Position numbers and translations under genes: made by a program. From NCBI GenBank assembly GCA_031316235.1, contig JALDRA010000001.1:3060001-3092000 (forward strand): a stretch of 32,000 bases of DNA. The letters run 5' to 3'. This DNA comes from Candidatus Scalindua sp. (lineage in GTDB: Bacteria > Planctomycetota > Brocadiia > Brocadiales > Scalinduaceae). Every line of letters starts with the position of its first letter. The stretch's first letter is position 1. The notes beneath the pieces are model-generated. The model did no database searches and was not told where the DNA came from. It saw nothing but the letters and a program-made list of their open reading frames with translations. This document shows, piece by piece, positions 14,767 through 31,808 of the stretch.

Positions 14767-15105
14767 GTTTCTTCTTATCCTTTGCTCTTATCGTTTTACT
14801 GGTATGCCTTGAAATTTGAAGGTAGCTAAATATTTTGATAATACGGTAAAAAGATCTGTACCGCAATCCTCTCATGCAGTATCCGTGACAATGGAGATAA
14901 TCTTAAAGTCTTCCTTCTTATTTGGCAAGATATTTTTCAAATATATATTGTTGTAATCAAGATTAATACCTATAATTACAGCTACAAAAGGAATGCGGGG
15001 AAGAGTACAAATTACCCATATACCTTATGCATGGTAAAAGACAGTCGGTAGTTTCAACGGGTGAAAGTTCATCAAGGTTCTGATAATGAAAGGGTGGAGA
15101 CGTGT

Positions 15106-16035
15106 ATGACCGGCAGTGGCGCTGAAGAAAGTATGAAAGGTTCGATACTAGAGGAGTTTGTTGAGAGGATAACAGAAGGGAAACAGGATCGCGCCTCCCG
15201 TTTTTTTGAAATATTCTCATCACGGGGATTCCGGCTCGATCATGATACTGTTTCCGGGAAAGTACGCTTAAGTGCCGATTCCCATATTGATGATGGTGGT
15301 TTTCTTGAAATACTCCAGAATGTAAATTATAAAAAACTTTGTACGAAACCGCATCAGGACTCTATTGACAAGGATAACTCAAAGGCGGTCAGAGAGAGGA
15401 GGGGGCTCCATGCATTCTTTGATACGATTAACACCGAACAGTTTGATATTGATAATAGCGGATATGTGACTGAACTCTTTATGAATCAAATCCCCGTTGA
15501 CCTGTTTCGTTTGAATTGGGAAAGGGACTGGTATGGCAGGTTTACACAATTTAAAAATGTAGAGCATCTGCCCAAAATACGTGTATATGATCTGGAACCG
15601 TTTATCGCTCGCCTGGTGAAATCAGTTTCTGCTGTTGGTATATCCTCATGGTCTTCGTGTGAAGGCCATTGGGGTGAACCGGCATTTATAAATTTTGATC
15701 GAAAATACCACCGTATCTGGTTTCAGACAATACTGAATAAGTTTATCAGTAAGAAACTTCACCTGGTATGCAAATGGGAGTGGTGGGAAAATCGCTGCAC
15801 AATCTGCAGCCCGACTAAGGACAGTTTAGCGTTGTACTTGGAAATCCAGGAAGTAGCCCGTCTTATTTATAACCATGAGGACTTTTTAAGAAGCATAAAA
15901 AAAGAGTGCTGCGCTCTTCTGACGGACAAACATAAGAGTATGAATAAAAAAGATTTGCTCTGCACATTTGAGAGTTTATTTGAAAAGTCAATGGATAAAA
16001 AACAATCAGCATGCAGGAACTCGTTACGTTTGTAA
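15106..16035 (+). CDS. hypothetical protein (no recognisable domain)
   Basis: The ORF track gives 15061-16035 starting at a GTG. An in-frame ATG at 15106 follows a GGAG-containing stretch (ggtggagacgtgt) and is my preferred start. No signal peptide. Trp/Cys-rich C-terminal half (SSCEGHWG, CKWEWWENRCTICSP). Confidence 0.45.
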   Translation: MTGSGAEESMKGSILEEFVERITEGKQDRASRFFEIFSSRGFRLDHDTVSGKVRLSADSHIDDGGFLEILQNVNYKKLCTKPHQDSIDKDNSKAVRERRGLHAFFDTINTEQFDIDNSGYVTELFMNQIPVDLFRLNWERDWYGRFTQFKNVEHLPKIRVYDLEPFIARLVKSVSAVGISSWSSCEGHWGEPAFINFDRKYHRIWFQTILNKFISKKLHLVCKWEWWENRCTICSPTKDSLALYLEIQEVARLIYNHEDFLRSIKKECCALLTDKHKSMNKKDLLCTFESLFEKSMDKKQSACRNSLRL

Positions 16036-21549: not shown

Positions 21550-23016
21550 ATGAAGAAAAAATTTTTTAATGAAAGGGGACCTTCAATGAGTACCAGCGCC
21601 AGAATCATACTATGTATAGCTTTTTGCCTGTTTTTTGCCTCGTTACCGGTTTCCATGGCAAGCGATCCGAACGAGTGGTCGCCTACATGGAAACTGTCGC
21701 CAGATAAGAGGCCTGAAAATATTGTCGATGAAGCCGTTACGGTTCCCGGTGACACAAAGAAAAGCCAATTCTTTAGCCCAAATACCTGTGGAGCCTGCCA
21801 TCCCGAAATTTTTAAGATGTGGAGCGGCTCTACCCATGCAAATGCATGGAAGAATCCATTGTTCCAGGCCTTATATAACTATGGGAAAAGAACCGCTACA
21901 GGAGAATCACAAAAAAGAAGTATAGAATCCTGTGTCCGCTGCCATCATCCCATAGGCCATAGTTCCGGTGAAAAGGATATACCGGCAGATGATGAAAAGG
22001 GCGGTGTTATTTGCGATTTCTGCCATTCTGTCAGGGCAACGACCGGTGTCGGTAATGCTCCTTATATCCTCAATCCAGGTAATGCTGCCGCTATGGAGGG
22101 AGGTACGAAATATGGACCTTTTGCAGATTCTCCGGAAACAATACATCAGAATCAGTTTTCTGAGCTGCACACACGCTCCGAGTTTTGCGGAGGATGCCAT
22201 GATGTTTCACATGCAGGGAATGATCTGCCGATTGAGCAAACCTATACCGAATGGCGTCAGGGGCCTTATAATACAGGAGATCCAGAGACATCGGTACACT
22301 GTCAAGACTGTCACATGAGACAACGTCCCGGATTCCCCTGTACCGGAAGTACCGAACGGCCGGACAATCCCGGCTTTGCAACTCCTCAGATAATGGGAGG
22401 CGTAAACAGGCCGCATATCTGGACCCATTATTTTGTAGGGGGGAGTACCGTTCCTATCTCACTTCCTCCGGATTCAGAATTACAGCCACAGATGGCTATC
22501 GATAGACTGAAGAATGCAGCAACCCTTGAAATAGAAGAAGATCTGAATGTGAAAGAAGATGGCTTGTTGCAGTTTAAGGTAAGCATAAAGAATACGGGTG
22601 CGGGGCACTATCTTCCAACAGGTCTCACAGAATTGAGGCAGATGTGGCTGGAAGTGTCTGTTACCGATTCTACAGGAAAGACACTCTTTCAGCGTGGACA
22701 TGTCAACGAAGAGGGGGCAATTGATCCTCAGGCAATTGTATATCACACGGTATTCGGTGATGAAAAGGGAGAAAAGACCTTATATGTCTGGGAGGCTACT
22801 CACATCATCTCAGACAATCGTATTCCTCCAAAAGGGAAAAAGGAAGAACAGTTTGCCTTTGTTATTCAGAGTGATATCAAGGCTCCGGTAACGATTAAGG
22901 CCGTATTGAATTATCGAAGTGCGCCACAGTATGTAGTGAATGCTCTTTTACAGGAAAAGGCAATAAAACTTCCCATAATCAACATGACGGAACTGGTAAA
23001 GGAGATAGATCTTTGA
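21550..23016 (+). CDS. pentahaem c-type cytochrome with haem-free C-terminal domain, exported
   Basis: 488 aa. Signal peptide (ARIILCIAFCLFFASLPVSMA). All five CXXCH motifs (CGACH, CVRCH, CDFCH, CGGCH, CQDCH) lie in the first 255 aa or so. The last 230 aa or so have no haem motif and contain NTGAGHYLPTG. The true start may be the internal Met at MSTSARI. Confidence 0.8.
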   Translation: MKKKFFNERGPSMSTSARIILCIAFCLFFASLPVSMASDPNEWSPTWKLSPDKRPENIVDEAVTVPGDTKKSQFFSPNTCGACHPEIFKMWSGSTHANAWKNPLFQALYNYGKRTATGESQKRSIESCVRCHHPIGHSSGEKDIPADDEKGGVICDFCHSVRATTGVGNAPYILNPGNAAAMEGGTKYGPFADSPETIHQNQFSELHTRSEFCGGCHDVSHAGNDLPIEQTYTEWRQGPYNTGDPETSVHCQDCHMRQRPGFPCTGSTERPDNPGFATPQIMGGVNRPHIWTHYFVGGSTVPISLPPDSELQPQMAIDRLKNAATLEIEEDLNVKEDGLLQFKVSIKNTGAGHYLPTGLTELRQMWLEVSVTDSTGKTLFQRGHVNEEGAIDPQAIVYHTVFGDEKGEKTLYVWEATHIISDNRIPPKGKKEEQFAFVIQSDIKAPVTIKAVLNYRSAPQYVVNALLQEKAIKLPIINMTELVKEIDL

Positions 23017-25492: not shown

Positions 25493-25958
25493 GGGTACAA
25501 TATTCAGCAGTCATGCGGGTTGTCATGTTCAGGAGCTTCCTTGCAGAGGCCTTTTTTTCCTTGACAAATTCCGGCAAATGTAATAAAAGTTTTCCCTTAA
25601 TGTATTACTATCTCTCTGGCTGCCTGTATACGCATAAAGCCTCAGTTTGAATCTCTTTTATTACAGCATATTCCCTTGCAAAAATCATTGTGCAACGGGG
25701 ATCTGCCGGGTATCGGCCTGAGGATTGTAAACAAGTGTTATCCGGTACCTCTCGTTTGAGAGAGATGAAGGATGGGGTTGCGGGTAATACAACGGTATGA
25801 GAGATTTTAAACCAGATACCGGTTTGGCAGGTATGTAGGTGGTCCTTTTTTTTGCAGTGTTTGAAAACCTTTCAAGTCTACGTCATTCAGGCGTGCTGAT
25901 GTACCTTTATTTTGAGTACTGATACGCAAAATTTTGATCCGGGGGGGGAGAATTGTTT

Positions 25959-27301
25959 ATGAAACGAATTATAAAAAAAATATTCCTGTTCTTTTTTGTA
26001 TGTACGACAGTGTCCAGCCTCTTTTTTCTGTCTGTTTCTGTTTCAGCGGAGGGGCCGGTCGGGAAGCTGGCAAAAGGTGAGGGGAAATGGGGTGAACACT
26101 GGAAACCGATTGAGATGTTCCGATGGTGGGATCCGGGGCACTATTTTGAGCCTGACAACAAGGTACAAGGTGTCTTTGAAGGGGATAAATGTGTGACCTG
26201 TCATACAATAATTACACCGAGGATTGCGATTGACTGGAAAGAGAGTGCCCATAGCGGATCAGGTGTTACCTGTGATAAATGCCATGGCTCTGATCATCAG
26301 AAGATCCAGATGCCAACCCCGGACATCTGCGCGAAATGCCACCCTGAGCAAGTTGAAGATTTTAAATCTGAGAGGGAAACGGGTCATCCTTCACATGCCA
26401 GGGCATTTCATCCGGACGTAGTTGAATCGGAGTGGCAGATCAGCAAGCCTCAACCAGAGGTCGCCGGCTGTGCACAGTGCCATTCGATTGAAAACAAATG
26501 TGATTCCTGCCATTTCAGACACCGCTTCAAGGCAGCCGAAGCGAGGCGTCCAGAGGCCTGTTCCTACTGCCATAATGGCCCTGACCATCGTGATACCGAG
26601 TGTTATAACACATCGGCACACGGAGTTATTACGGCGATTGACGGAGACAGGTGGGATTGGGACAAACCGCTGAAGGTGGGTAACTACCGTGCGCCGACGT
26701 GCGCTTACTGCCACATGTATAATGGGACACATAATGCCGTTGAAAATGCGGTGTACTCCCATATGGGGGTTGAGGAAGTTGATCGTGGGGCCGAAGATTT
26801 TGCAGAGAAAAGGAAAGCGTGGACGAATATCTGTAATGACTGTCATTCAGCCCGGTTTGCGGCCGCATATTTACGAGGCGCTGACGAGACGGTAAAAGTG
26901 AGCCATACAAAAGTAAGAGAGGCGAGGGCTGTTATTGAAGATCTGCATGAAGAGGGTCTTCTTGACGCGATGCCCAAGGATCTTGCGCCGCACCTTGATC
27001 AGGGGCACAAGTGGAACCTGGGGGGCGTATGTACAATGTTACCGCGATAGAGCGGGAATTCTTTGACATGCTCGTCTACCATGGAACGACAGTCTACAAA
27101 GCAGCCTTTCATATGTCTCCAAACTTCCAGACATACGAGCTGGGGGCCTTCAAGCAGGATCAATCGCTGGCACGGATAAAATCCGAAGCCAGTAAGCTGA
27201 GACGTTTAAAGACGCTGGAAGATAAGGCGGGGATCAAGTACGAGTCGTACGATTTCTGGAAAGTAGGCGAGTATACCAATTCGCTGAAGGTGATTAAATA
27301 G
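25959..27301 (+). CDS. HAO-like octahaem cytochrome c (short form, about 447 aa), interrupted by one frame break at a G6 run
   Basis: ATG at 25959 follows a G8AG stretch (25941-25950). Signal peptide present. Eight CXXCH motifs (CVTCH, CDKCH, CAKCH, CAQCH, CDSCH, CSYCH, CAYCH, CNDCH), collinear with the second HAO at 29965-31708. The frame switches at 27020-27025: ...HKWNLGG in one frame continues as RMYNVTAIEREFFDMLVYHG... (ORF 27011-27301), aligning with FRMSNCSDIERVCFESVGY of the paralogue. Confidence 0.8.
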
Positions 27302-27400
27302 CGGTTAAACGGAAATCGTGAGTTTGAACGGTATATTTCCAATTGACAAGAGTGCAGTTATTTTTCCGGGGGAAGCACTGACTTGCAGGGGGTTTGAAGT

Positions 27401-27922
27401 ATGAAAGAGGAATCTGGCAGGAAGGAAGAGTCAAACGGGAGTGGAAGCGGCCGGCGGGCCTTTCTCAAGGTCTGTTCTGTCTTTCTTGCGTCGCTGATCG
27501 GTATTGCGTACAGCATACCGCTCATACGGGCTTTTATAAGTCCCGCACTGAAGAAGACGGTGATTAGTTCATCGGGTCTGGTGGAGGTTGGAGACATACG
27601 GGGGTGCCAGATCAACGTGCCCAGGAAAGTGGCGGTCAGGGATTCGCGCAGGGATGCATGGACCAAATACCCGGAAACGGTAATTGGGGCAGTCTGGCTG
27701 GTTCGAGGAGAGGATGAAACAGTTACGGCCTTTTCGGTAATATGTCCTCACCTCGGTTGCGGGATAGACTGGGATAAGGATTCGGGGAGATTTGTCTGTC
27801 CCTGCCACGATAGTTATTTTGATATCAAGGGCGAGATTATCTCGGGGCCATCTCCGCGCAGAATGGATACCCTTGAAACAGATATTAAGCAGGGAAACTG
27901 TTTGTCCGTTATCAGAAGATGA
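27401..27922 (+). CDS. Rieske [2Fe-2S] subunit with twin-arginine signal anchor
   Basis: 173 aa. Tat motif GRRAFLK followed by a TM helix. Rieske cluster boxes CPHLGC and CPCHDSYFD (C-x-H...C-x-x-H). Confidence 0.85.
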   Translation: MKEESGRKEESNGSGSGRRAFLKVCSVFLASLIGIAYSIPLIRAFISPALKKTVISSSGLVEVGDIRGCQINVPRKVAVRDSRRDAWTKYPETVIGAVWLVRGEDETVTAFSVICPHLGCGIDWDKDSGRFVCPCHDSYFDIKGEIISGPSPRRMDTLETDIKQGNCLSVIRR

Positions 27923-28005
27923 AACTGGGTATTGCAAAAAAAATACCTGCTTGAAAATATCTGCATCTGCAGAACATATCACCTTATTGCGGGATCCATT
28001 ATATT

Positions 28006-28961
28006 ATGAAGTGGTTGGAAGAGAGAACAGGCCTGAAAGATCTTGTGAAGAAGTTTCTGGATGAGCCCGTAGAAGGGGGTGCGAAGTGGTCGTATGTTTT
28101 CGGCAGTGCCCTGGTAATCGTCTTCATGATGCAGATTGTCTCAGGCGTAATCCTGTCGACAGGATACTCCGCATCAGCGACGGATGCGTGGGGGAGCGTC
28201 CATTATATCCAGGAACAAACCCTGTCCGGGTGGTTTGTGCGGGGGATGCATAACGTAGGTTCCAGCGCGATGATGGTGCTTGCGATACTCCATATCACGC
28301 AAACGGTCATCTTCGGGGCCTACAAGAAGCCTCGTGAGTTAAATTGGATATCCGGGGTCTTTATGCTCTTTATCATCCTTGCCTTCGGACTTACCGGTTA
28401 CCTGCTTCCGTGGGACCAGAAGGGGTACTGGGCTACGCAGGTGGCGACGAGCATCCTCGGGCTGATCCCCGAGCTTGGAGACTTTGTAAAGGGAGTGGTC
28501 CAGGGGGGAATGATTATGGCAACCTGACGCTGACACGGTTTTATAGTTTTCACGTTTTCTTTCTTCCTGCCGGCCTGATGACGTTTATGGCCATCCACCT
28601 CTATTTATTCAGAAGACACGGGGTGACTCCGCACTGGAAGCCGGATGAGTCAGAGCTCAAGAGGAAGACACAGCCCTTTTGGCCGGACCAGATATTCAAG
28701 GATGTGGTGGCAGCCGTGGTTGTATTTGCCATCATGGCGGCAGTCGTCTGGTACCGGCACGGAGCAGAGTTACAGTCTCCGGCGGATCCGAGTTCGCAGT
28801 ATATGGCGCGCCCCGAGTGGTATTTCCTCTTCCTGTTTCAACTGTTAAAATATTTTGAAGCCGATATGGAGGTTGTCGGCGCCATTATCCTTCCGACCAT
28901 TGCAGCGCTGTTAATGCTTGCAATACCATTTCTTGACAGGGGGAGAGCCGCTCACCGGTAA
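28006..28961 (+). CDS. cytochrome b (b6 + subunit IV type, contiguous), interrupted by a frame break at a G6 run
   Basis: ORF 28006-28527 (WSYVFGS, RGMHNVGSSAMMVLAILH = H-x13-H, LTGYLLPWDQKGYWA) continues after 28503-28508 in ORF 28344-28961. That ORF carries NLTLTRFYSFHVFFLPAGLMTFMAIH (H-x14-H, b6/Bacillus-type spacing) and the PEWY Qo motif. Confidence 0.8.
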
Positions 28962-28987
28962 AACGGTTACCCTTTATCGGGGGGTTC

Positions 28988-29704
28988 GTGGCGGCGATGG
29001 CGGGTGTGGTCTGCCTGACGCTCATGTCAATGGTGAGTGATTCGCGGGATGAGCGGTTATTAGCGCAGAAGGAGGAGTCTGAAGTGATGGCGGACAGGGC
29101 GATCGAGTTGGCGGTACTTGGAATTCCCCCAGGGCGGAGCATCGGTGTTTACGAACGACCCGTTGTATGTGGGCGAGGGGGTGTTCCGTGAGCACTGTAT
29201 AACGTGTCACGGTTACCGGGAGGAGGGGGTAATTCAGCCCCTGATATGACGGGGTATAATTCGCGATCATGGTTGAGGGGTTTCTTCCGGAACCCGAATG
29301 CGGTCAGATATTATGGAAATACCCATTTCCGGGAGATGCCGGAAAGCGTCATGGGGGAAGAAGATTTGTCCTATCTGATAGACTTTCTGCTGGCGCAGTC
29401 AGAGCCCGAAACGGCGGTGGATCCGATATTGAGGGAGATAGGAGAGACGATTCTGGAGCAGGAGGGGTGTTACAACTGCCATACGTATAAGGGGAAAGGG
29501 GGAAAATTTGCGCCTACCCTGGACGGCTTTGCGTCAGATGAATGGTTAAGGGGTATGATAGAAGATGCCGGGCAGGAGAAGTATTTCGGCAGGTACAACA
29601 CGATGCCGTCATTCAAGGAGGAGATAGGAAGGGATGAGATGGATAAACTGATCTTGTTTATCCAGAGTTTACGAAGTGAATCCGACCTGGTATTGCCGGA
29701 GTGA
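28988..29704 (+). CDS. membrane-anchored dihaem c-type cytochrome domain, split over three frames; probably the C-terminal part of the cytochrome b polypeptide
   Basis: TM helix LPFIGGFVAAMAGVVCLTLMSMV (frame of ORF 28988). In a second frame: ...GGASVFTNDPLYVGEGVFREHCITCHGYREEG. ORF 29204-29704 holds NSAPDMTGYNSRSWL...REMPE plus the second haem CYNCH...YNTMPSF. Frame breaks lie at or near 29126-29130 (C5) and 29225-29229 (G5). Confidence 0.65.
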
Positions 29705-29859
29705 ATTGCTGAAAAAAATAATATTTTGTAGAAGAAAAATGACGACAATAGAGAAAAAGTAAAGAGAGTCAGGCTGTAGAGCTGAAGGTTTTGGCATCAT
29801 TGAAAAGCTGATGATTTCACAAAGTTATGTTGATTTGAGGCTTCTTTTTGATACATAAG

Positions 29860-29901
29860 GTGCGTTTCGCTGAGAAATTGCTCTGCAAAACGCACTTTTT
29901 T
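29860..29901 (+). terminator. candidate intrinsic terminator after the Rieske/cyt b/cyt c array
   Basis: gtgcgttt (29860-29867) pairs with aaacgcac (29888-29895) and is followed by T6 (29896-29901). The 20-nt loop is larger than ideal. Confidence 0.4.
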
Positions 29902-29964
29902 CCTGTTTTAAATTTCCCAAGACAGGAGATCCGGATTACGATGGGAGAAAGGAGAAGTGCATAT

Positions 29965-31708
29965 ATGATGAAAAAAAAAGAATCTGTTTGTTCGGTTTTA
30001 TGTATTCGTATTGACATTATGTGTCAGCACTGATTTTTCAACCAAAGAGGCAGAGGCGGTTGAAATCATCACGCACTGGGTGCCGCACGAAGTATACGGT
30101 ATGCCTGGCGATCCTGACAACTCTGGTAAGGTGTTCTTTTCAGGTCTGTATGCCAAATACATGGGGTATCCGGAAGGAGCGCCACCATATCCTGGTAAAT
30201 ACAGCCGATTCTGGAGAACACTTCCAGCATATCGTTATTACCTCCCGGATTTCATGTATAACAGGGACGAGATCAGGCCGTCTAACCCAATCAAGGGGCA
30301 GTTCAGACTTCAAGAATGTCTTGGCTGCCACTCAGTGGTTACCCCTGGTATCGTAAGGGATTATGAGAAGAGTGCACATGCCAAGGCTGAACCCAGCCCG
30401 ACTGGATGTGACACTTGTCATGGTAATAACCATCAGAAGCTTTTGATGCCGAGCTCAAAATCTTGTGGTGTAAGCGATTGCCACGAAGAGCAGTATGTAC
30501 AAAATATGCAAGGAGGAATCGGATCACACGGATCGTGTGCAAGCTTCGCTCAGATAGAATGTGCATGGTCAATTGAGAGACCTCCGGGAGATACAGCCGG
30601 ATGTACTTTCTGCCATACAAGCTCAGAAGAGCGTTGCAGCACATGTCACCAGAGACATCAGTTCGATCCTGCAATAGCAAGACGATCAGAACAGTGCAAG
30701 ACCTGTCACTGGGGTAAAGACCACAGGGATTGGGAAGCATATGATATCTCAATACATGGAGTTGTGTATCAGGTCAACAAGAACGATCCAAGCAACTTCG
30801 ATTTCTCGAAGAAGCTTTCTGATGCTGATTACGTAGGACCTACCTGTCAGTATTGTCATATGAGAGGCGGCCATCACAATGTGCAGAGACTGTCAACCGT
30901 ATACACCAGCATGGGTATGTCGAATGCGGACAGAGGTGCACCTCTTTGGAAAGAGAAGAGAGACACCTGGGTATCGGTATGCGACGATTGTCACTCACCA
31001 AGGTTTGCAAGAGAGAACCTGCAGGCGATGGACGAGGCATGTAAAGATGCCGGTCTTAAGTATACGGAGACGTTCAAGATTGCAGAGAACCTGCAGCTCG
31101 ATGGTATGGGCGAGCCTATGCCGAAGGATCTGGCACCTGACTGGAGTGGTCAGCACATATGGAGTTTGAAGATTGGTGCGTACCATGATGGCCCCGAATA
31201 CGGCGGAAAATCAGGTGAGTCTGGTGAGTTCAGAATGTCGAACTGCTCAGACATTGAAAGGGTCTGTTTTGAGAGTGTTGGATACTGGATGACTTACATA
31301 TTCAAAGGCATGGCACACGGTTCATGGAACGATGCAACCTACTGTGACGGTTCCTTTGGTATGGACAGATGGCTTGTGAAGGCAAAGGCAGCTGCTGAGC
31401 AGGCGAGAAGGTTTACGGCAATAGAGAAGAAGGTTGGAATCAACTGGGTGCCACAGGATTTCTGGAGGCATGGCGATTGGTTAGAACAGTTGTCTGGATG
31501 GAAGATAGTGAAGGAGTATCCTGGAAAGACAATATTCGATCTTTGTCCTGAGCCAGGCTGGCTTGATACACATCATGCACCAGCTGAGGAAGTGGAATAC
31601 ATAAACAGAAAGCTTAAAGAGCTGGGTATGACTGCCGGTTCACACAGTGCGCATGAGCAGCATTCCGGTGACCATGATCCTAATGCAAGATCCATGAAAG
31701 CACATTAA
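29965..31708 (+). CDS. HAO-family octahaem cytochrome c, long form (hydroxylamine oxidase / hydrazine dehydrogenase-like); N-terminal signal peptide separated from the body by a frame break in an A9 run
   Basis: The ORF track starts at a TTG (30011) with no signal peptide. AAGGAG (29949-29954) lies 10 nt before ATGATG (29965). Removing one A from A9 (29971-29979) gives MMKKKNLFVRFYVFVLTLCVSTDFSTKEAEAV..., a typical signal peptide in frame with the body. Haem motifs: CLGCH, CDTCH, C-GVSD-CH, CTFCH, CSTCH, CKTCH, CQYCH, CDDCH. The C-terminal GMAHGSWNDATYCDG aligns with the Tyr cross-link region of N. europaea HAO (GLAHVNPGGWTYTEG, from memory). Confidence 0.85.
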
Positions 31709-31771
31709 TATTTTTCATGGTTTCTTGAGATGTTTAGGTAATGAGCAGTTCTGTTAGCAGTTTATAAGTAG

Positions 31772-31807
31772 ACAGGGAGCTGGGTATATACCCGGTTCCC
31801 CTGTTTT
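31772..31807 (+). terminator. candidate intrinsic terminator downstream of the second HAO gene
   Basis: acagggagctgggtatatacccggttcccctgtttt forms an imperfect GC-rich stem of about 13 bp (with G-U pairs and one bulge) around the gggtatataccc palindrome, followed by TTTT. Confidence 0.5.
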
Positions 31808-31808
31808 G

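Follow-up and report, generated by a model that had tools for sequence, protein, structure and literature searches.

With which proteins does R/b-1, the least studied among anammox bacteria's three Rieske/cytochrome b (R/b) complexes, exchange electrons? The question is raised by a gene cluster of Candidatus Scalindua, the dominant marine anammox lineage. The cluster occupies positions 25959-31708 of a 32,000-nt stretch (contig JALDRA010000001.1 of assembly GCA_031316235.1), the whole of which is called the window here. As identified with Pfam and NCBIfam, it holds on the forward strand a gene for an octahaem cytochrome of the hydroxylamine oxidoreductase (HAO) family, a Rieske gene, a gene for a cytochrome b joined to a c-type cytochrome (cyt b/c) and a second HAO gene. 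The roles of the three R/b complexes, and the routing of electrons from hydrazine and hydroxylamine oxidation, form a standing question in anammox bioenergetics (PMC12954380). An earlier reading made from the DNA letters only (the sequence-only reading) had suggested that the array is a dedicated electron-routing module. On balance it is considered probable that catabolic and respiratory genes of anammox are arranged here in a manner specific to Scalinduaceae, with the roles proposed below. What is robust as a Scalinduaceae-specific feature is the position of R/b-1 in the midst of hydrazine and hydroxylamine genes, rather than the junction of the short HAO with R/b-1, because the backbone of the neighbourhood recurs without the short HAO; that junction is one frequent, non-universal state of the neighbourhood.

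Identity of the clustered genes

The first gene, when corrected for a frameshift discussed below, encodes a short HAO (sHAO) of 447 amino acids with a Sec-type signal peptide and eight CxxCH motifs. Alignment with orthologues and PDB sequences showed these motifs in the conserved order (CVTCH, CDKCH, CAKCH, CAQCH, CDSCH, CSYCH, CAYCH, CNDCH). Among PDB sequences, KsHOX (4n4j; E = 1.1e-110) and 6t5e are closest, followed by KsHDH (4.3e-91) and NeHAO (3.6e-57); the multihaem family PF13447 was matched on both HAO genes of the cluster. The Tyr of QTYELG in the short HAO aligns with Tyr467 of NeHAO (WTYTEG), the position of the inter-subunit cross-link to haem 4 (P460), and with the Tyr of QTYGNG in KsHOX and ATYSDG in KsHDH. 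A distal Asp-His pair, the role of which at the catalytic haem is established for NeHAO, is found in NGPDHRD, aligned with SGVDHNN of that enzyme. Presence of the cross-link Tyr has been tied to oxidative catalysis (Ferousi 2021, PMC8042395; likewise PMC12758564). Judged by its sequence, the short HAO is a paralogue in the HOX/HDH subclade and shows every hallmark expected of a P460 enzyme of the oxidising type. Its eight haem motifs, Asp-His pair and Tyr are also those of KsHOX (kustc1061; PDB 4N4J), a hydroxylamine-to-NO oxidase, but it lacks the Hao_C domain of HOX (447 amino acids versus ~500-526). To HOX proteins of Scalindua its identity is no more than ~46-47 %.

Relatives of the short HAO were found in Scalinduaceae (68-88 % identity), in Anammoxibacter (~60 %), among HOX-type enzymes (46-48 %) and among gammaproteobacterial HAOs of ~450 amino acids (40-44 %). 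The short HAO forms a separate clade limited to Scalinduaceae and Anammoxibacter, which may correspond to the group "hao10, specific to Ca. Scalindua" (Okubo 2021, PMC7814187). The cross-link Tyr is kept in most Scalindua orthologues and is replaced by Asn in loci L001 and L002 (L numbers denote loci of relatives) and by Val in Anammoxibacter. An AlphaFold2 monomer model of the closest intact orthologue (P0001, with a 10-sequence alignment) reached a pLDDT of 36.7 and a pTM of 0.27, too low for the model to be used. Most marine Scalindua orthologues (L015-L028 and others) have a CX4CH third haem motif (CGTKGCH), as has hydrazine dehydrogenase (HDH; CGVSDCH), and the sub-clade of the window has the ordinary CAKCH. 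More distant homologues (36-40 % identity) occur in gammaproteobacteria and Nitrospinota (L034, L035, L036, L039, L069, L070). All six show a second, weaker HAO-like match ~150-200 nt downstream (24-31 % identity, approximately residues 180-420 of the query), which suggests a tandem gene for a multihaem partner protein.

The Rieske protein has GRRAFLKV as its twin-arginine motif, and its cluster boxes read CPHLGC and CPCHDS (PF00355 at 2.3e-11). In the corrected cytochrome b the spacings H-x13-H and H-x14-H are b6-like; a PEWY motif and a subunit-IV-like part follow, and the protein runs on into the c-haem motifs CITCH and CYNCH of a dihaem c domain. Pfam matched Cytochrome_B, Cytochrom_B_C and Cytochrom_C on this gene, and its orthologues are single open reading frames (ORFs) of 562-576 codons. 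Seven helices were predicted from the cytochrome b sequence, a topology that would place the C-terminal dihaem c domain, a generic class-I domain of the CcoP/QcrC-like kind, on the P side. The best anammox matches outside Scalindua are fusion proteins of Kuenenia and Brocadia of 595-630 amino acids (49-51 % identity). As described for Kuenenia, R/b-1 (Kuste3096-3097) consists only of a small Rieske protein and a fusion of cytochrome b with a dihaem c domain (PMC12954380). The predicted products of the Rieske and cyt b/c genes have this published R/b-1 architecture; the stretch 25959-29704 contains no ORF for a FAD/NAD(P) subunit or a further multihaem subunit, and neither do the orthologous loci. 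The neighbourhoods differ. In Kuenenia and Brocadia the pair, with a Rieske gene of 162 codons, comes after a YceI gene, and no gene of the HAO family is nearby, whereas in Scalinduaceae a short HAO and/or HOX lies upstream of R/b-1 and HDH or a different HAO downstream of it.

Linkage of Rieske/cytochrome b genes to an octahaem HAO-family protein is shared with another Kuenenia complex, R/b-3 (Kuste4569-4574), which was called "more peculiar" than R/b-1 and also comprises further multihaem c-type cytochromes as well as a subunit proposed to be an NAD(P) reductase. According to PMC12954380, which cites a complexome study (its reference 9) on this point, all R/b-3 subunits including Kuste4574 co-migrate. 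The HAO partner in R/b-3 belongs to the Tyr-less reductive clade, whereas the window has a fused cytochrome b and a HOX-like HAO with Tyr. None of the marks of R/b-3 (Tyr-less HAO, extra multihaem cytochromes, NAD(P) reductase) was found at the window locus. The reading of the locus as a reduced R/b-3 was ruled out, as the fusion architecture is that of R/b-1 and its nearest Kuenenia and Brocadia matches have no HAO neighbour. Annotation tables of S. profunda list R/b-2 and R/b-3-like clusters only.

The fourth gene is, as far as its sequence tells, that of HDH itself. It scores 1216.9 bits against the NCBIfam equivalog hydrazine_HDH (NF052343; cutoff 900) and is an end-to-end orthologue of KsHDH (kustc0694; PDB 6HIF; 1127 bits, residues 8-565), with ATYCDG aligned on ATYSDG. 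A signal peptide, seven CxxCH motifs and one CX4CH motif in third position are present, the latter and the Tyr being shared with KsHDH. The protein is 93 % identical to the HDH encoded in L013 (Ca. Scalindua sp. RBC_AMX3). It differs from KsHDH only in its genomic position directly 3' of R/b-1 and in a homopolymer shift at the 5' end of the gene in the window assembly. Its ATGATG start is preceded by AGGAG. In the spacer that separates cyt b/c from HDH is a terminator-like hairpin with a folding energy of -21.3 kcal/mol (z = -4.06), and none of 200 shuffled sequences folded as well. A simple terminator scan called nothing in this spacer; it missed the hairpin because the loop is longer than 8 nt.

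Much of the sequence-only reading agrees with these identities. The Tat-dependent Rieske protein, the cytochrome b with its histidine spacings and PEWY motif leading into a dihaem c domain, the terminator-like hairpin and the separate ribosome-binding site of the second HAO were all recovered. Its by-eye placement of the Tyr of both HAOs at the haem cross-link position also stood: in the alignment with sequences of solved HAO structures, on which it had let this inference depend, the Tyr of the short HAO falls in the column of NeHAO Tyr467 and that of the second HAO on ATYSDG of KsHDH. The statement that this Tyr marks oxidising members reflects current literature, but the residue is not universal among R/b-linked orthologues (Asn in two Scalindua species). 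The term HOX/HDH-like for the second HAO was right as to family and too modest for a gene so far above the HDH cutoff. Gene identities and common strand of the first three genes were read correctly; of the stated gaps of 84-100 nt, the lower value does not hold, the Rieske-cyt b spacer being 51 nt, not 84 nt, when measured from the corrected Rieske stop. Extra FAD/NAD(P) and multihaem subunits are indeed absent; derivation from the HAO-containing Kuenenia cluster, of which the array was thought to be a minimal version, does not hold for a pair that matches Kuste3096-97. The remark that biochemical proof was lacking for such HAO-containing clusters is dated for R/b-3, given the co-migration cited in PMC12954380.

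Conservation of the gene order in Scalinduaceae

Neighbourhood look-ups and a scan of species-representative genomes yielded ~25 orthologous short-HAO loci in metagenome-assembled genomes (MAGs), to which a metagenome scan added ~20. The triad of short HAO, Rieske and cyt b/c genes was found in 13 of the ~33 Scalinduaceae loci examined (window, L013, L005/6, L007, L001, L002/3, L022, L023, L025, L049, L063, L067, L068), with differing flanks. L013 has the same four-gene array as the window, at 84.8 % nucleotide identity. R/b-1 followed by HDH occurs in four lineages (window, L013, L076, L078), and the gene 3' of cyt b/c may elsewhere be HAO544, a HOX-like gene or none of these. A backbone hzsA-HOX-trpBA-(short HAO)-R/b-1-HDH/HAO is conserved in Scalindua. 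From HOX onward it is the same in L001-L003 and L013, where the short HAO is inserted ahead of the Rieske gene, and hzsA lies upstream of HOX in L001-L003. The window has trpD (reverse strand), a multihaem cytochrome gene, VanZ and a 2-hydroxyacid dehydrogenase gene in place of the hzsA-HOX-trpBA part. The synteny comparison across Brocadiales proposed in the sequence-only reading thus gave a divided answer: the triad recurs within Scalinduaceae, but the linkage is absent from the R/b-1 loci of Kuenenia and Brocadia and from Anammoxibacter.

In one marine clade (L023:1619-4985, L063:1535-1765, L068:282-3676, minus strand) the short HAO has, immediately upstream, a second, divergent Rieske/cytochrome b pair (25-41 % identity). 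There the short HAO stands between two different R/b complexes, the divergent pair being on the opposite strand.

A variant of the short HAO linked to R/b was found in L001 (10001-11347) and in L002/L003/L030, together two Scalindua species in four assemblies. In place of the catalytic haem-4 motif CAQCH it has FALRH or FALRN; Asn stands at the position of the cross-link Tyr and Gly at that of the distal Asp. It is still of full length, still has the seven remaining haem motifs and is still linked to R/b. These proteins look like catalytically dead heptahaem derivatives. An electron-transfer or structural role would fit them, since a free enzyme without an active site would be expected to decay. 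Their retention next to R/b-1 hints at a physical association of short HAO and R/b-1, and it is the best, though still indirect, argument for one.

Frameshifts in the window assembly

In the window sequence none of the short HAO, Rieske and cyt b/c genes (0/3) is intact as an ORF. Seven indels of 1-2 nt were counted: one in the short HAO, one in the Rieske gene, four in cyt b/c and one in the signal peptide of HDH. The sequence-only reading had read through every break without reporting it. In the ORF list the short HAO appears as two pieces (25953-27050 and 27011-27301), the Rieske ORF ends prematurely at 27922, cyt b/c is split into three to four overlapping ORFs in differing frames, and HDH begins at a TTG at 30011, which leaves its signal peptide incomplete. 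With four genes broken in this way, the locus is beyond automatic annotation.

The breaks were located by tblastn and by frameshift-aware protein-to-DNA alignment to intact orthologues. They lie at ~27020-27027 in the short HAO, at a G6 run (27020-27026); at ~27890 in the Rieske gene, beside GGG only and ahead of the true stop at 27952-27954; and at ~28501, 28938, 29132 and 29217 in cyt b/c. Nucleotide alignment with the intact L013 and L005 loci showed a gap of 1-2 nt in the window at each of the six sites in the first three genes, five of which are beside a G or C run of at least 5. The HDH protein reads MMKKKNLFVRFYVFVLTLCVSTDFSTKEAEA, continued by VEIITHW..., only when the A9 run at 29971-29979 is taken as A8. 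Over all four genes, six of the seven indels are at or beside G, C or A runs.

The seven indels are most probably consensus errors of a homopolymer-prone assembly, the real genes being intact. Assembly error is favoured over decay by the homopolymer sites, the density of G/C runs, the intact orthologues, the lack of stops, the low dN/dS values and the error-free upstream genes. Runs of at least 5 G or C number 17 in 3.7 kb of the cluster versus 10 in the 25.9 kb upstream, a ~12 times higher density. The G+C content of 25959-29704 is 0.51 compared to 0.417 for 1-25900, with a strong positive GC skew in the cluster, and the concentration of both G-runs and frameshifts there is attributed to this higher G+C content. 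At the same genes in L013 (0.466 versus ~0.41) and L002 (0.451 versus ~0.40) the contrast is smaller. All ten upstream housekeeping ORFs that were scanned have full-length Pfam domain coverage.

If the indels were real, the cluster would be decaying and the short HAO, Rieske and cyt b/c genes would be pseudogenes, which is judged unlikely. Such decay would agree with the confinement of all seven indels to 4 kb, next to ~19 kb of intact upstream ORFs, and with the rearrangement of the region directly upstream relative to L013; the site at 27890, with only a G3 run beside it, is the one that homopolymers explain least. With six of seven indels at homopolymers and G/C runs so much denser, however, error by itself would be enough to produce such clustering. 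No nonsense codons remain within the corrected frames, and dN/dS versus L013 is 0.106 for the short HAO, 0.120 for the Rieske gene and 0.075 for cyt b/c, in the same range as the adjacent HDH (0.081). HDH is an essential gene, yet likewise carries a homopolymer shift, and the orthologues of the cluster genes are intact in every other assembly. Two observations count against assembly error: dN on the window branch is somewhat raised for cyt b/c (0.035 versus 0.013) and is also raised for the Rieske gene, and no sequence identical to the window, on which the frameshift sites could be verified, was found in the searched collections. An exact-DNA scan of metagenome_contigs with the sequence beside the first frameshift gave no match, a protein-guided scan of the same collection gave no relative above 84 % identity, and the best match in the protein database was 85 % identical. 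Programmed frameshifting was ruled out, since the seven sites in four genes are independent and none is conserved in the orthologues, all of which are in frame.

Proposed role of the array and its alternatives

In the proposed explanation R/b-1 would act as a menaquinol:cytochrome c oxidoreductase that builds proton-motive force through a Q-cycle, its dihaem c domain facing the anammoxosome lumen and reducing lumenal c-type acceptors. In the same compartment the short HAO would oxidise hydroxylamine, N2H4 or a related N-compound and pass the electrons into the same c-haem pool, possibly through an exit haem docked on the dihaem c domain. A geometric precedent for such docking is the HAOr-dihaem c complex (Kustc0458/Kustc0457; PDB 6H5L), in which an HAO trimer binds dihaem c at exit haem 1 (PMC8042395). 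The dihaem c domain of the window gives only a marginal match to Kustc0457 (E = 0.0065), and HAOr, unlike the short HAO, has no Tyr. HDH would be a neighbouring, separate transcription unit. The adjacency of the genes may then reflect co-regulation or co-localisation of a hydrazine/hydroxylamine electron chain, rather than a proven fixed supercomplex.

Several observations weigh against this proposal. In ~20 Scalinduaceae loci the short HAO stands alone among unrelated neighbours, and the Anammoxibacter orthologue, with Val instead of Tyr, is unlinked. A search from cyt b/c revealed that marine Scalindua L076-L078 have the order hzsA-HOX-trpB-trpA-Rieske-cyt b/c-HDH without a short HAO. Spacers between short HAO and Rieske genes in relatives range from 120 to ~430 nt, so that co-transcription is not assured. 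The oligomeric states differ: trimers for HAO enzymes, dimers for bc complexes. Kuste4574, the one HAO documented as a partner of an R/b complex, is of the Tyr-less reductive type, and the analogy with R/b-3 is imperfect because an oxidising HAO yields electrons. Co-expression of the genes of the locus and a complex of HAO with R/b are putative, and the complex is unproven. With linkage in 13 of ~33 loci and such spacers, the dedicated electron-routing module of the sequence-only reading is not established.

Alternatively, there may be no functional coupling at all: short HAO, R/b-1 and HDH would be independent units in a rearrangement-prone cytochrome gene cluster, and the short HAO a free soluble lumenal enzyme like HOX. 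This is a serious possibility, though the less probable one. The stand-alone loci with their variable neighbours, R/b-1 without a short HAO in L076-L078, Kuenenia and Brocadia, the changing gene 3' of cyt b/c, the long intergenic spacers in relatives and the difference in upstream context between the window and L013 would all be explained by it. It accounts less well for the triad, whose order and orientation are unchanged across at least four divergent sub-lineages while the flanks differ. A free enzyme is also difficult to reconcile with retention of the triad in two species whose full-length heptahaem HAO has lost its catalytic site. In the window, moreover, the spacer between short HAO and Rieske genes is 99 nt, and the simple terminator scan called no terminator in it.

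Coupling might also run in the opposite direction, the short HAO being a stably bound subunit that uses electrons from R/b-1 for the reduction of nitrite or NO, the role proposed for Kuste4574, so that the array would encode a minimal quinol:nitrite oxidoreductase. The co-migration of R/b-3 subunits, in so far as it is cited in PMC12954380, provides a precedent, the electron output of a bc complex would naturally feed a reductase, and oxidative HAOs can reduce nitrite in vitro (PMC8042395). A reductive role is nevertheless judged less likely because the Tyr is present, which the literature ties to the oxidative direction (PMC8042395); the short HAO is also nearest to HOX and not to the Tyr-less clade of HAOr and Kuste4574, and the FAD/NAD(P) partner needed for a bifurcation model is absent. 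Taken together, this alternative is regarded as very improbable. Operation of R/b-1 in reverse as a hydroxylamine:quinone reductase was likewise judged unlikely for energetic reasons, as a high-potential Rieske centre would lie in the path.

A stronger form of the proposed coupling of short HAO and R/b-1 can be put forward tentatively, as a somewhat speculative possibility. A HOX-derived HAO may have been recruited in Scalinduaceae as a peripheral, haem-wired subunit of R/b-1, docked on the dihaem c domain, where it would exchange electrons directly between N-oxide/hydroxylamine chemistry and quinol oxidation. In the two species with the variant it would have become a pure heptahaem conduit.

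Features of the window

The coordinates of the cluster are collected in Table 1. Rfam and tRNA scans of the whole window gave no matches. At 3 kb upstream of the cluster, with the VanZ-like and 2-hydroxyacid dehydrogenase genes in between, a gene on the forward strand (21550-23016) encodes a secreted multihaem cytochrome of 488 amino acids with five CxxCH motifs; its N-terminal part resembles cytochrome c554 and its C-terminal part, weakly, ExtKL. A further forward-strand ORF of 324 amino acids (15061-16035), located among ordinary housekeeping genes, has no Pfam match at E <= 1e-4.

Table 1 Genes and terminator-like hairpins of the cluster (window positions)
Feature	Position	Strand	Basis and remarks
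Short HAO (sHAO), octahaem, HOX-like	25959..27301	+	447 aa corrected; Pfam/NCBIfam and PDB-sequence match; one frameshift
Rieske 2Fe-2S protein, Tat motif	27401..27954	+	~183 aa; one frameshift near 27890
Cytochrome b fused to C-terminal dihaem cytochrome c	28006..29704	+	~565 aa corrected; four frameshifts
Terminator-like hairpin + U6, between cyt b/c and HDH	29857..29904	+	Folding
Hydrazine dehydrogenase (HDH)	29965..31708	+	580 aa if A9 at 29971-29979 is read as A8; NF052343, 6HIF
Terminator-like hairpin 3' of HDH	31770..31808	+	-24.8 kcal/mol, z = -4.34

Significance for anammox respiration

The individual components of the array are not new: HDH has been characterised in full, and earlier work describes both the R/b-1 type and HOX-type HAOs. 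The sequences of the array already sit unannotated in public MAGs. An HAO-family partner has been published for R/b-3 only (PMC12954380). In another family, genes for c-type cytochromes were reported to flank R/b-1 copies often, with nothing further noted there (Suarez et al., PMC9325076). A literature search found no paper on an HAO linked to R/b-1, nor on the backbone that leads from hzsA through R/b-1 to HDH.

In the window R/b-1 lies between a HOX-like enzyme and HDH, and many relatives carry the hzsA-HOX-trpBA-...-HDH backbone, which gives this complex concrete, testable partners. Whether the HAO partner serves as an enzyme or as an electron wire could be read from a natural experiment, the apparently dead heptahaem orthologue that has stayed linked to R/b-1. 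If recruitment of the short HAO to R/b-1 is true, HAO-family proteins would have become subunits of R/b complexes at least twice independently, as Kuste4574 in R/b-3 and as the short HAO in R/b-1.

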